This document shows, piece after piece, positions 24,188-26,675 of a stretch of 32,000 nt of DNA. Position 1 is the stretch's first letter. Each line of letters begins with the position of its first letter. The stretch is from contig NZ_LN831039.1 of assembly GCF_001457595.1 (NCBI RefSeq), positions 2,820,001 through 2,852,000 on the forward strand, written 5' to 3'. The translations under genes and the position numbers were made by a program. The notes under the pieces were generated by a model. The model was not told the DNA's origin. It worked only from the letters and a program-made list of their open reading frames with translations, and made no database searches. The stretch is from Mycolicibacterium smegmatis. GTDB lineage: Bacteria; Actinomycetota; Actinomycetes; Mycobacteriales; Mycobacteriaceae.

Positions 24188-25261
24188 TCAGCAGATGCGG
24201 GGCAGCGGATCGCCGACCAGCATGTCGACGATGCGGCTACCGCCGAACGACGTTCGCAGCGCGACGATTCCGGCAGGCTCGGACGTGATCTCCCCGACGA
24301 TCGCGGCATTGGCACCCTGTGGGTGCGCGCGCAGCGCGGCCACCGCGGCAGCGGCCTCGTCGTGCGGCACGACGGCGAGGAACTTGCCCTCGTTGGCGAC
24401 GTAGAGCGGGTCGATGCCCAGCATGTCGCACGCACCGAGCACCTGGGGTGCGACCGGGAGGCGCTGTTCGTCGAGGATCACCGCGTACGGCGCATCCTTG
24501 GCCAGTTCGTTGCACACGGTTCCGACGCCGCCGCGCGTCGCGTCGCGCATCCACCGTGTCGATGGTGCTGCGGCCAACAGGATCTCGACGATGTCGTGAA
24601 CCGGCGCGGTGTCGGATTCGATGTCGGCGTCGATCGCGAGGTCGCCGCGGGCCAGCATGACGGCCATACCGTGTTCGCCGATCGTCCCCGAGAGCACGAC
24701 CTGATCGCCCGGGCGGACGTCGGCGCGTGACAGCCGCCGTCCCGCGGGCACCACTCCCACACCGGCCGTGCAGATGTAGAGCCCGTCGGCCGCGCCTTTA
24801 CCGACCACTTTCGTGTCGCCGGTGACGATGTGGACACCGGCCCGGGCCGCGGCCTCGCTCATGTCGGCGACGATCTCGCGCAGTTCGGCGATCGGGAATC
24901 CCTCCTCGATGACGAAACCCGCCGACAGCCACTGCGGGCGCGCGCCCGACACCGCGAGGTCGTTGATGGTGCCGTGCACCGCGACGTGCCCGATCGATCC
25001 GCCCGGGAACCGGTGTGGGGCAACGACGTACGAGTCCGTGGTGAACGCCAGGGTGTCACCGGACGGGGTCCGTACGAGCGCGGCGTCACCGAGTTGTTCG
25101 AGCTCAGGGTTGCGGAATGCCTCCAGGAACACCGCGTCGACGAGTGCGGCCGACGACTTGCCGCCCGCACCGTGCGCCAGGGTCACCACGTCGTCGAGCA
25201 GGCGTGGACGGCGCTGCCGGAACTGGTCGATGCGCTCGAGCACCTGGTTCTCGGTTCTCAT
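24188..25261 (-). CDS. hypE: [NiFe]-hydrogenase maturation protein HypE (carbamoyl dehydratase)
   Basis: PurM-like fold with LAHGAGGK near the N-terminus and the diagnostic C-terminus ...GDPLPRIC. ATG 25261 overlaps the upstream stop (ATGA). Confidence 0.96.
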   Translation of the reverse strand: MRTENQVLERIDQFRQRRPRLLDDVVTLAHGAGGKSSAALVDAVFLEAFRNPELEQLGDAALVRTPSGDTLAFTTDSYVVAPHRFPGGSIGHVAVHGTINDLAVSGARPQWLSAGFVIEEGFPIAELREIVADMSEAAARAGVHIVTGDTKVVGKGAADGLYICTAGVGVVPAGRRLSRADVRPGDQVVLSGTIGEHGMAVMLARGDLAIDADIESDTAPVHDIVEILLAAAPSTRWMRDATRGGVGTVCNELAKDAPYAVILDEQRLPVAPQVLGACDMLGIDPLYVANEGKFLAVVPHDEAAAAVAALRAHPQGANAAIVGEITSEPAGIVALRTSFGGSRIVDMLVGDPLPRIC

Positions 25262-25941
25262 GATGCGCCCGCCCGTGCGGCCGCCATGTGCTCCTGGGCC
25301 ACGCTCCAGAGCCGGTAGCCGAGCATGGCGTGCGACTCCTGGATGCGGTGAATGCTCTGGCTGTGCACCGTGAAACAGAAATCCAGGTCGTCGGTCGCTG
25401 CCATGCGCCCGCCGTCGTGCCCGGCGAAGCCGATGGTCAGCAGGCCCCGCTGCTTGGCTTCGCCGATCGCGGTCATCAGATCCTCGGAGTTGCCCGAGGT
25501 CGACAGCGCGACGGCGATGTCGCGGTCGCGGGCATGGGCGATGATCTGCCGCTTGAAGATCAACTCGAAACCCACGTCGTTGCCCAGCGCGGTCACCACG
25601 GCCTCGTCGGCGGCCAGGGACCACGCCGCGACGGGGCGGCCACGCGCGGGTCTGCTGAACAACGATGCCAGCGTCGCTGCGTCGGTCGAACTCCCACCAT
25701 TGCCCAGCGTGTACAACCGGCCGCCGCGCAGGAACCGCTCGGCCATCTGCGCGCCGGCCGCCCGCAGCGCGTCGTCGTACTCGTGCAGCGATTCCTGTTG
25801 CAATCTGGCACTTTCAGCAGCCTTGCTGCGTGCGGATGCGGCGAGATCGCCGAGCAGTGCGCCGACGTCGCTCTCCTCGGATTCGATGAAGGGGTAGAGG
25901 AATCCCGTGGTGTCGGGGTTGCCGGTGCTCCCTGTCGTCAT
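25258..25941 (-). CDS. SIS-domain protein (GmhA/DiaA-like phosphosugar-binding fold) with intact signature motifs
   Basis: 227 aa with LGNGGSSTDA and LSTSGNSEDL motifs, plus IHRIQESHAMLGYRLW. It has ATGA overlaps at both ends. Confidence 0.85.
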   Translation of the reverse strand: MTTGSTGNPDTTGFLYPFIESEESDVGALLGDLAASARSKAAESARLQQESLHEYDDALRAAGAQMAERFLRGGRLYTLGNGGSSTDAATLASLFSRPARGRPVAAWSLAADEAVVTALGNDVGFELIFKRQIIAHARDRDIAVALSTSGNSEDLMTAIGEAKQRGLLTIGFAGHDGGRMAATDDLDFCFTVHSQSIHRIQESHAMLGYRLWSVAQEHMAAARAGAS

Positions 25942-26675
25942 GGCGTCACCTCATCTTCTGCCGCGGTCACCGCCGCGATGGCCACGCCGCCGTGCACCAG
26001 CAGCAGGTCGTCGACGTCGACCGCGCCGAGCATCGCGGTGTCGACCCACTCCTCGCCGCGCGCGGTGCGTACCAGGGCCTCACGGCCCGCACCGGCGGGT
26101 GGCAGGATCACCTCGGCGAGGCGGCCCTCGTCACTGCACGTGACGCACGTCTGAGTGTCATCGGCAGGCGTCGTCAGCAGCCCCGGATGTTCGAAGCACA
26201 CGTGCGTCAGTTCCCACAGCAGGTGGTACATCAGCACGAACCGCCCGGTGGCGGGCACCATCGGATCGTCGGAGTCGACCCACAGGATGTGGTGCGCGGC
26301 CCCGGCGGGCGGGCGCGGTCCCGAACCGATCCACAACGTCGTGACGCCCCACGCGTCGGCGCGGCGCATCGCGTCGGTCACGGCCGCGTCGTCGGCCGCG
26401 GCGACGGCCAGCAGCAGGTCACCCGGTTGGCTCGCGACCCGGGCCTGGGCGACCGGATCGGACTCGACCAGCGCCACCGACGGGAGCGCCCGCTTGCCCA
26501 TGATCACGGGGTGGACGAACTCGACCGCGACATGGTGGGCGTGCGGTTCCCACTGCGGTGCGATCACCCACAGCGTGGCGCCGTCGTGGAACTTGCGCGC
26601 GACGTCGAGGGCCGCGGTCGCGAGGTCGGCCGACAGGTCGGTGCCGACGAATGTCGGTGCGGGGATGGTGGTCAT
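25938..26675 (-). CDS. Fusion protein: degenerate SIS-like domain + C-terminal HypC/HupF-like beta-barrel
   Basis: The N-terminal about 165 aa aligns to the neighbouring SIS protein, but its motifs are replaced (APQWEP for GNGGS, AAADDA for STSGNS). The C-terminal about 75 aa, CVTCSDEGRLAEVI...VDDLLLVHGGVAI, parallels HypC MCLGIPGxVV...GDWVLVHVGFA. Confidence 0.72.
   Translation of the reverse strand: MTTIPAPTFVGTDLSADLATAALDVARKFHDGATLWVIAPQWEPHAHHVAVEFVHPVIMGKRALPSVALVESDPVAQARVASQPGDLLLAVAAADDAAVTDAMRRADAWGVTTLWIGSGPRPPAGAAHHILWVDSDDPMVPATGRFVLMYHLLWELTHVCFEHPGLLTTPADDTQTCVTCSDEGRLAEVILPPAGAGREALVRTARGEEWVDTAMLGAVDVDDLLLVHGGVAIAAVTAAEDEVTP

Follow-up and report, generated by a model that had tools for sequence, protein, structure and literature searches.

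A probable split GmhA-like factor tethered to a HypC-type barrel in the hydrogenase maturation cluster of Mycolicibacterium smegmatis

A 32,000-nucleotide stretch of the Mycolicibacterium smegmatis genome (assembly GCF_001457595.1, contig NZ_LN831039.1, positions 2,820,001 to 2,852,000; hereafter the window) was analyzed with a focus on two adjacent genes of its hydrogenase maturation (hyp) cluster: gene B (245 amino acids (aa); 25938-26675, minus strand) and gene A (227 aa; 25258-25941, minus strand), the latter known as MSMEG_2706 'gmhA'. The window holds the maturation part of the locus for the group 1h hydrogenase Hhy, because protein A is 100% identical to an M. smegmatis protein (P0270) and the published locus tags (MSMEG_2702 hypD, 2703 hypC, 2705 hypE, 2706 'gmhA' and 2711 hypF) fit the gene layout. 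GmhA is D-sedoheptulose-7-phosphate isomerase, a zinc-dependent SIS tetramer. The analysis makes it probable that A and B together are a split, sub-functionalized member of a GmhA-like family that is specific to the [NiFe]-hydrogenase maturation clusters of aerobic H2 oxidizers. Both proteins have the GmhA fold, and only jointly do they carry the full set of GmhA residues; in B, the GmhA-fold domain with its metal ligands is followed by a HypC-like barrel.

The stop codon of B and the start codon of A overlap in an ATGA (25938-25941, minus strand), an arrangement that implies translational coupling, and the stop of A overlaps the start of hypE in the same way (25258-25261, minus strand); both overlaps were read directly in the sequence. 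An earlier note on this stretch had described two ATGA-coupled genes between hypF and hypE, and this was confirmed, with the qualification that a DUF6390 gene and a 63-aa open reading frame (ORF) also lie between hypF and B.

The membership of A in the SIS family, which the earlier note had based on its GNGGS and STSGNS motifs, is clear: A passes the Pfam SIS_2 model (51.3 bits; cutoff 27) and matches solved GmhA structures in HMMER searches (E=1e-26). Its conservation was followed in 41 A-family sequences from several phyla, 120 close relatives and 44 metagenomic tandem proteins. Phosphate loop 1 (GNGGS, residues 80-84; 25690-25704, minus strand) is kept in 41/41, 120/120 and 44/44 of these, and phosphate loop 2 (STSGNS, residues 147-152; 25486-25503, minus strand) is 100% conserved in all three samples. 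The Gln and Glu of R199-I-Q201-E202 (25336-25347, minus strand) are also 100% conserved, the Gln being the residue that GmhA contributes to the zinc of the neighboring monomer. At the His/Glu/His positions of GmhA, a HMMER alignment to the Burkholderia enzyme places T90, L94 and Y209 of A, with Q201 retained. The segment T90...L94 (25660-25674, minus strand), as aligned by HMMER to 5lu6, stands where GmhA has H61 and E65; both residues are substituted in A, and neither His nor Glu ever occurs there in the 41, 120 or 44 sequences. RefSeq and JGI name A 'D-sedoheptulose-7-phosphate isomerase'; it nevertheless scores below all GmhA equivalog cutoffs (105.8 bits for TIGR00441, cutoff 209; 115.9 bits for NF010546, cutoff 276), and its score against the DiaA model NF008138 (74.9 bits) is under the 352-bit cutoff, its neighbors being genes for hydrogenase and not for replication. 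The equivalog scores and the lost metal ligands led to the rejection of A as a genuine GmhA.

For B, single-sequence comparisons were uninformative: pairwise BLASTP detected no similarity to A, phmmer found no match among PDB sequences, and B on its own matched neither the Pfam SIS models nor the NCBIfam GmhA equivalog models. Searches with B needed profiles, and a B-family profile built from 41 sequences matched GmhA in the PDB with E=5e-12 over residues 16-154. The AlphaFold2 model of B (predicted local distance difference test (pLDDT) 92.7; predicted template modeling score (pTM) 0.88) consists of a Rossmann-like domain followed by five beta-strands, and Foldseek matched the first domain to GmhA 2x3y (E=1e-9, template modeling (TM) score 0.7, probability 1.00). 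DiaA structures fit B nearly as well as GmhA ones in both the profile search and Foldseek. The SIS fold with lost motifs that the earlier note had read from the letters is thus upheld; it spans residues 12-167 (26175-26642, minus strand), is without the phosphate loops and helix alpha3, and carries APQWEP (39-44) and AAADDA (92-97) where the GNGGS and STSGNS motifs would sit.

What B retains are the His/Glu/His metal ligands. A HMMER alignment to Burkholderia GmhA places H48, E52 and H151 of B at the His/Glu/His positions; the Gln and the entire alpha3 helix are missing, as are the two phosphate loops. H48 and E52, equivalent to GmhA H61 and E65, lie in H48-x3-E52-x2-H55-P56 (HVAVEFVHP; 26508-26534, minus strand), and H151, equivalent to GmhA H180, lies in H151...H158 (YHLLWELTH; 26202-26225, minus strand). 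Three neighboring residues are specific to the B family, namely H55 (73/81 sequences), P56 (78/81; GmhA has Gly-Arg69 at H55-P56, so that Pro replaces Arg69) and H158 (63/81). The H48/E52/H55-P56 motif is present in 120/120 close relatives, and H151 and H158 are both present in 44/44 metagenomic tandem forms. Taken together, H55, H158, H48, E52 and H151 would give a site rich in His, with as many as four His besides one Glu and one Gln. Because H55-P56 and H158 are family-specific and stand beside the ligands, the chemistry may differ from sedoheptulose 7-phosphate isomerization, and the extra His residues hint at a metal or a chemistry unlike that of zinc-GmhA.

The B family is large (>5600 homologs in 791 clusters at 50% identity), and many of its members are named 'hydrogenase assembly protein HupF' by NCBI. 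With so many clusters, invariant residues and a confident fold, the possibility that B is a pseudogene was rejected. A minority of the family (P0133, P0144, P0203, P0238, P0258 and P0184) has lost HxxxExxHP and kept the CxxC-D barrel; these members may be a second paralog class or wholly non-catalytic variants.

The active site of GmhA itself spans monomers: its zinc is bound by H61, E65 and H180 of one monomer and by Q172 of its neighbor (E. coli numbering; H64, E68, H183 and Q175 in Burkholderia), and these ligands are completely conserved in orthologs (PMC5387315, PMC5705639, PMC4697000). Alignment columns were counted in E. coli numbering for the 41 A-family and 81 B-family sequences. In the A family, N52, S55, D58, N93, D94, S119, T120, S121, S124, Q172 and E173 are all invariant, alpha3 is present, and the H180 position is His in 36/41. 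In the B family, the H61 position is His in 74/81, the E65 position Glu in 76/81 and the H180 position His in 74/81; the phosphate loops are lost, and 81/81 lack alpha3. Of the two proteins, only A therefore has the phosphate loops and the Asn-Asp pair of alpha3 that are expected of a GmhA, at 100% across 205 sequences, and the quartet H61/E65/Q172/H180 is complete in neither polypeptide, A having Thr, Leu, Gln and Tyr, and B having His, Glu, a lost position and His. The same complementary pattern recurs in 120 close relatives of A, in 120 of B and in the 44 metagenomic tandem proteins.

Judged by these columns, A and B have degenerated in a complementary manner, such that the residues conserved everywhere make up exactly one GmhA site distributed over two chains; neither protein is expected to be a GmhA alone, since the full residue set exists only in the combination. 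The contrast of an intact with a degenerate partner, as first proposed, therefore holds for B, which has lost its phosphate loops, but not for A, which is without three of the four GmhA metal ligands. A homology model of the M. tuberculosis enzyme combines the Glu of one monomer with the phosphate loops and the Gln of the other (PMC7705670). If that model is right, the loops and the Gln share one chain, and so the site at the A:B interface would be complete, whereas the reciprocal one would be empty. In GmhA, a half-site enzyme, one active site can be ablated without lowering activity (PMC5705639), and this property provides a simple route to complementary degeneration. An A:B heteromer with one composite site is considered quite likely.

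Several points weigh against this interpretation. The geometry of the A:B interface is deduced from conservation, and the placement of the phosphate pocket on the Gln-donating chain rests on the homology-model paper and on the parsimony of the conservation pattern; among the GmhA papers, only PMC7705670 states explicitly which chain supplies the pocket. Were the pocket on the His/Glu/His chain, B would have a metal site without a pocket and A a pocket without a metal. The His/Glu/His set is lost in ~7/81 B-family members, and tandem forms from outside the mycobacteria have Asp/Asp/His in the A half and keep the Gln in the B half, which may indicate a further, variant metal site there. The column counts take an E. 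coli GmhA sequence as their ruler; its landmarks fall at the published numbers, and it agrees with the HMMER alignments. To our knowledge, no HypABCDEF step requires a phosphosugar.

That A and B act as one unit is argued by their adjacency and by single-chain fusions in many lineages. B, A and hypE follow one another directly in 80/80 loci from Mycobacteriales, Rhodococcus and Nocardioides, these loci having been obtained from a single-protein scan that returned only close Mycobacteriales relatives. Three-domain fusions (degenerate SIS, HypC-like and SIS domains; ~420-460 aa) make up >100 clusters at 90% identity and come from Candidatus Dormibacteraeota and Chloroflexi, and tandem SIS-SIS proteins without the barrel account for about half of 80 diverse metagenomic loci and are also present in Thermus thermophilus. 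The domain order of the fusions is the gene order, B then A, and the actinobacterial split point falls just before a conserved FLYPF motif that opens the A half. Assembly artifacts were rejected as an explanation for the fusions, which come from too many independent clusters, contigs and phyla. One natural fusion, P0234, was modeled with pLDDT 89.4 and pTM 0.84, its CxxC loop being the only long stretch of low confidence (pLDDT <50). The A half of the model superposes on GmhA with a TM score of 0.84-0.89, and the prediction points to a defined overall arrangement. A GlmS-like arrangement was rejected, as tandem-SIS GlmS structures fit the model only at a root-mean-square deviation of ~15 Å. 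The catalytic/pseudo-catalytic heteromer suggested in the earlier note can therefore be taken over in part: the 80/80 adjacency and the fusions make a heteromer very probable, but the roles of its partners seem to be complementary instead.

An unsplit, ancestor-like form of the module also exists. The group 1h 'AH' cluster of Cupriavidus necator H16 on pHG1 encodes, between hypC and hypD, a single 229-aa SIS protein (WP_011153996) that has a complete GmhA-type residue set, catalytic and binding, in one chain, lacks a HypC-like domain and overlaps the start of hypD. It aligns to A with 46% identity (E=5e-61), sharing the LYPF motif and the phosphate loops, and to B with 29% identity (E=2e-8) through AVEFxHPV and YHxLWxLxH; because it aligns to both, it links two proteins whose similarity is undetectable in direct comparison. 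In contrast to the split pair, this protein would presumably be a homo-oligomer with equivalent sites. The same single SIS gene occurs in the order hypF-hypC-SIS-hypD-hypE in Afipia carboxidovorans (WP_013913768), Bradyrhizobium and Mesorhizobium. As the C. necator form also falls under the GmhA equivalog cutoffs (148 bits), the unsplit proteins, which belong to one family with A and B, are set apart from GmhA as a GmhA-like family of their own.

The C-terminal part of B, which the earlier note had likened to the Fe(CN)2CO chaperone HypC, does resemble it in predicted structure and in profile comparisons. The five-stranded barrel occupies residues 176-240 (25956-26150, minus strand; strands at 185-191, 199-204, 207-212, 224-228 and 231-236) and starts ~20 residues past the last metal-ligand helix of B (H151/H158). 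The B-family profile matches the solved Thermococcus HypC (3vyr) with E=5.7e-6 over residues 192-243, and a profile-profile comparison (hhalign) of 76 B C-termini with 146 HypC sequences gave 95.1% probability and E=8.6e-9. This alignment pairs C177 with HypC Cys2, and H228 (in LVHGG) with the conserved His that precedes the last strand of the HypC barrel, and a two-residue insertion creates C180. The essential Cys is therefore not N-terminal but internal, as had been anticipated; the N-terminal Met-Cys of HypC is replaced by C177-V-T-C180-S-D182 (26130-26147, minus strand), a CxxC-D motif that is well conserved in the B family (C177 76/81, C180 76/81, D182 79/81).

B thus shares with HypC, HybG, HupF and HoxL the barrel, the aligned Cys, the conserved His and the hypD/hypE neighborhood. 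It differs from them in having no free N-terminus at the Cys, in its CxxC with an invariant Asp, in the absence of MC(L/I)G(I/V)P and in its fusion to a SIS domain. It also scores below the thresholds for HypC (22.1 bits against 28.5 for PF01455 HupF_HypC; 19.7 against 48 for TIGR00074), although a precomputed PF01455 match is present in many B homologs, and pairwise BLASTP found no similarity between B and the two HypC proteins of the window. The proposed tethering of a SIS domain to a HypC-like barrel holds for B, but the barrel is not part of the core, as about half of the metagenomic forms and all of the proteobacterial ones lack it.

The module is strongly associated with hydrogenase genes in Mycobacteriales, metagenomic, proteobacterial and Thermus loci, and the co-occurrence expected in the earlier note was thus observed. 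Hyp or hydrogenase structural genes flank the module in the 80 metagenomic loci wherever the flank suffices, and on distant contigs it lies in hypF-(hypC)-[module]-hypD-hypE and overlaps the start of hypD. There are at least five arrangements (M, module): hypF-hypC-M-hypD, protease/hypA-M-hypF, hypCDE-M-hypF, M-protease-hypCDE, and M next to the small and large subunit genes. Some of the clusters are of group 1h type, with NifU, DUF5947 and DUF6084 genes (C. necator included); those of Bradyrhizobium and Mesorhizobium are group-2a-like, with NHL-repeat and Rieske or NifU genes, and the Afipia cluster is of the cytochrome-b-linked membrane-bound type. The named hosts are all aerobes. The module accompanies the genes for HypC, HypD, HypE and HypF, the builders of Fe(CN)2CO, more than it accompanies hypA or hypB, and it is likely to act in the branch of maturation that makes Fe(CN)2CO.

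The genes have been annotated before, and their presence in group 1h and 2a operons has been remarked upon: MSMEG_2706 is co-induced with the hyp genes (PMC5445863), 'gmhA' has been noted in such operons with no role assigned (PMC11879354, PMC5900883), and two adjacent 'phosphoheptose isomerases' have been listed for M. indicus pranii (PMC3505973). A 2025 review of hydrogenase maturation does not mention the SIS module (PMC12134894), and no functional study of these genes, the unsplit form included, was found in the literature. In Thermus thermophilus pTHTHE1601 (locus L167), a glutaredoxin-like (seleno)protein gene (9629-9889) directly follows the tandem SIS gene; a glutaredoxin beside 'gmhA' has also been reported in group 1h loci of Acidobacteria (PMC5900883), which suggests a possible thiol-redox partner of the module. 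In the C. necator pHG1 cluster (locus L165), WP_011153986 (2243-3298), directly upstream of the group 1h large subunit gene, bears the annotation 'hydrogenase expression protein HypE'. This is probably in error, since the position of the gene suggests the small subunit.

A working model that is consistent with these observations, and that is considered likely as a whole, can be outlined. The overlapping stop and start codons would favor co-translation, and A and B would assemble as a GmhA-type hetero-oligomer. At the A:B interface, B would provide the metal ligands His48, Glu52 and His151 together with the family-specific His55 and His158, and A would provide Gln201 as the fourth ligand, along with the two phosphate loops and the Asn-Asp pair of alpha3; the reciprocal site would be dead. 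The composite site would bind a sugar phosphate, with the A loops holding the phosphate and the C1-C2 end reaching the metal, where it would probably be transformed. The barrel of B would tether the SIS module to the HypC/HypD/HypE machinery that makes Fe(CN)2CO, or to the large subunit, by docking where HypC docks (on HypD or the large subunit), and would thereby bring the CxxC-D arm and the SIS site near the iron that receives its ligands. The module might hand over a precursor of a ligand or reducing power, or it might pass on no more than a conformational signal. The case for real catalysis on a phosphosugar is evenly balanced.

The conservation of the site also bears on readings that do without chemistry. 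The SIS domains might only oligomerize, as a pure scaffold or chaperone that positions a HupF/HoxL-like HypC paralog to protect the large subunit or Fe(CN)2CO from O2. DiaA sets a precedent, being a GmhA-fold tetramer that serves as a protein-binding scaffold (PMC4697000), and it is a near-equal structural match for B; the HypC paralogs HupF and HoxL are needed under O2 (PMC12134894), and HupF is the name given to many B homologs. However, a scaffold needs neither the 100% conservation of eleven ligand-binding residues in A nor the ~92% conservation of His/Glu/His in B across phyla. The DiaA homotetramer itself lacks the catalytic Glu (PMC4697000), whereas the catalytic set is preserved in A and B, split over two chains, and the HypC paralog that would be positioned is missing from half of the diverse versions and from all proteobacterial ones. 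This explanation is considered unlikely; because catalytic as well as binding residues are strictly conserved, an enzyme appears more likely than a DiaA-like scaffold. The same residues count against a metabolite sensor or checkpoint, in which the composite site would bind a sugar phosphate of the pentose phosphate pathway (e.g., sedoheptulose 7-phosphate) without turnover and so gate hydrogenase maturation by carbon status. The conserved binding residues, the induction of Hhy by energy limitation (PMC2799521) and the SIS domains of RpiR/MurR and NanR regulators, which sense ligands (weak profile matches and structural matches), would fit such a role, but conservation extends to the Glu, His and Gln that are acid/base and metal residues and points to chemistry, the HypC-like barrel is the only output domain, and the genes to which the module is translationally coupled are hypD or hypE, not regulators. 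A sensor is accordingly rated as rather improbable, somewhat below the scaffold.

The annotation of A would be explained if A were an ordinary sedoheptulose-7-phosphate isomerase of heptose biosynthesis, the pathway in which GmhA acts, placed in the operon by chance, with B as a decaying duplicate; GmhA enzymes are indeed its best structural relatives. The scores of A (106-116 bits against equivalog cutoffs of 209-276), the retention of B as a conserved, well-folded family across its 791 clusters and the fusion of A and B in many lineages, always in hydrogenase clusters, make this highly improbable. A more ambitious proposal is that the SIS module is a missing enzyme of aerobic [NiFe]-cofactor biosynthesis, replacing the aerobic CO-ligand synthase HypX in aerobes without HypX, such as mycobacteria. 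The metal site would then open a sugar phosphate to an aldehyde or enediol form, and either reducing equivalents or a one-carbon unit, as the CO ligand or as a precursor of it, would be passed directly to iron held by the CxxC of the tethered barrel or by HypC-HypD. The aerobic hosts, the position between hypC and hypD, the His-rich site and the absence of an encoded HypX from the examined clusters with the SIS module are consistent with this. Like the module, HypX supplements hypABCDEF as an accessory gene of aerobic H2 oxidizers, but its fold (formyltransferase and crotonase) and chemistry are unrelated, and C. necator has both, in different clusters. The proposal is a long shot, and the oxygen-compatible ligand-supply step that the earlier note had imagined, while it fits the aerobic hosts, is pure speculation.

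The remainder of the cluster, on the minus strand in the right half of the high-GC window, is laid out as follows. A 385-aa ORF (30774-31931), for which no family was found in Pfam or NCBIfam and which is kept in 68/80 related loci, lies upstream of a HycI-type maturation protease gene (30143-30625), a hypC (29881-30141) and hypF (27593-29884, with HypF domains). In 77/80 loci of Mycobacteriales type, hypF and B have the DUF6390 gene (26860-27588; PF19927, E=2e-85) between them; this gene is missing from the SIS-module clusters of Dormibacteraeota/Chloroflexi, Thermus and proteobacteria, and is therefore a lineage-specific addition with a linkage limited to Mycobacteriales. The 63-aa acidic ORF (MTTPGGHLSEEPQEE...; 26672-26863), apparently disordered and with no Pfam family, is ATGA-coupled to the DUF6390 gene upstream and to B downstream (stop/start overlap at 26672-26675, read directly in the sequence). 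Its homologs occur in 30/80 related loci, 26 of the 30 being just downstream of hypD and not upstream of B.

Beyond A, hypE (24188-25261, with AIRS and AIRS_C domains) is separated from a second hypC (22415-22699) and hypD (21250-22380) by a plus-strand IS110-family transposase gene (22953-24161; DEDD_Tnp_IS110 and Transposase_20). The gap is 1.5 kb here and 15-160 nucleotides in 77/79 related loci, which marks the insertion as particular to this genome; it may uncouple hypC-hypD from the upstream operon. The cluster contains three HypC-type modules (the two standalone HypC proteins and the barrel of B); in the distant clusters whose modules are fused, there is a single standalone HypC.

As far as the literature showed, three results appear to be new: the reading of A and B as two halves that complement each other to one GmhA-type site; the series of evolutionary stages, namely single gene, tandem fusion, three-domain fusion and split pair; and the conclusion, drawn from residue conservation, that a 'GmhA' of MSMEG_2706 type should be unable to act alone. 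All stages of the series are extant in different phyla, and the module would be a clean natural case of a half-site homo-oligomeric enzyme that degenerated in a complementary manner into an obligate heteromer. The common annotation is corrected, in that MSMEG_2706-type 'D-sedoheptulose-7-phosphate isomerases' would not be autonomous GmhA enzymes. A structural hypothesis that is ready for mutation is provided, in which each A:B pair has a single composite site of GmhA type that is tethered to a HypC-type barrel. Hydrogenases of groups 1h and 2a (Hhy and Huc) oxidize atmospheric H2 in air and are the main biological H2 sink; they are sought as oxygen-insensitive catalysts, and their production in other hosts needs the full set of maturation factors. 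The A/B module would be a widespread, conserved and uncharacterized addition to that set, and a specific handle on the hydrogenases that consume atmospheric H2.

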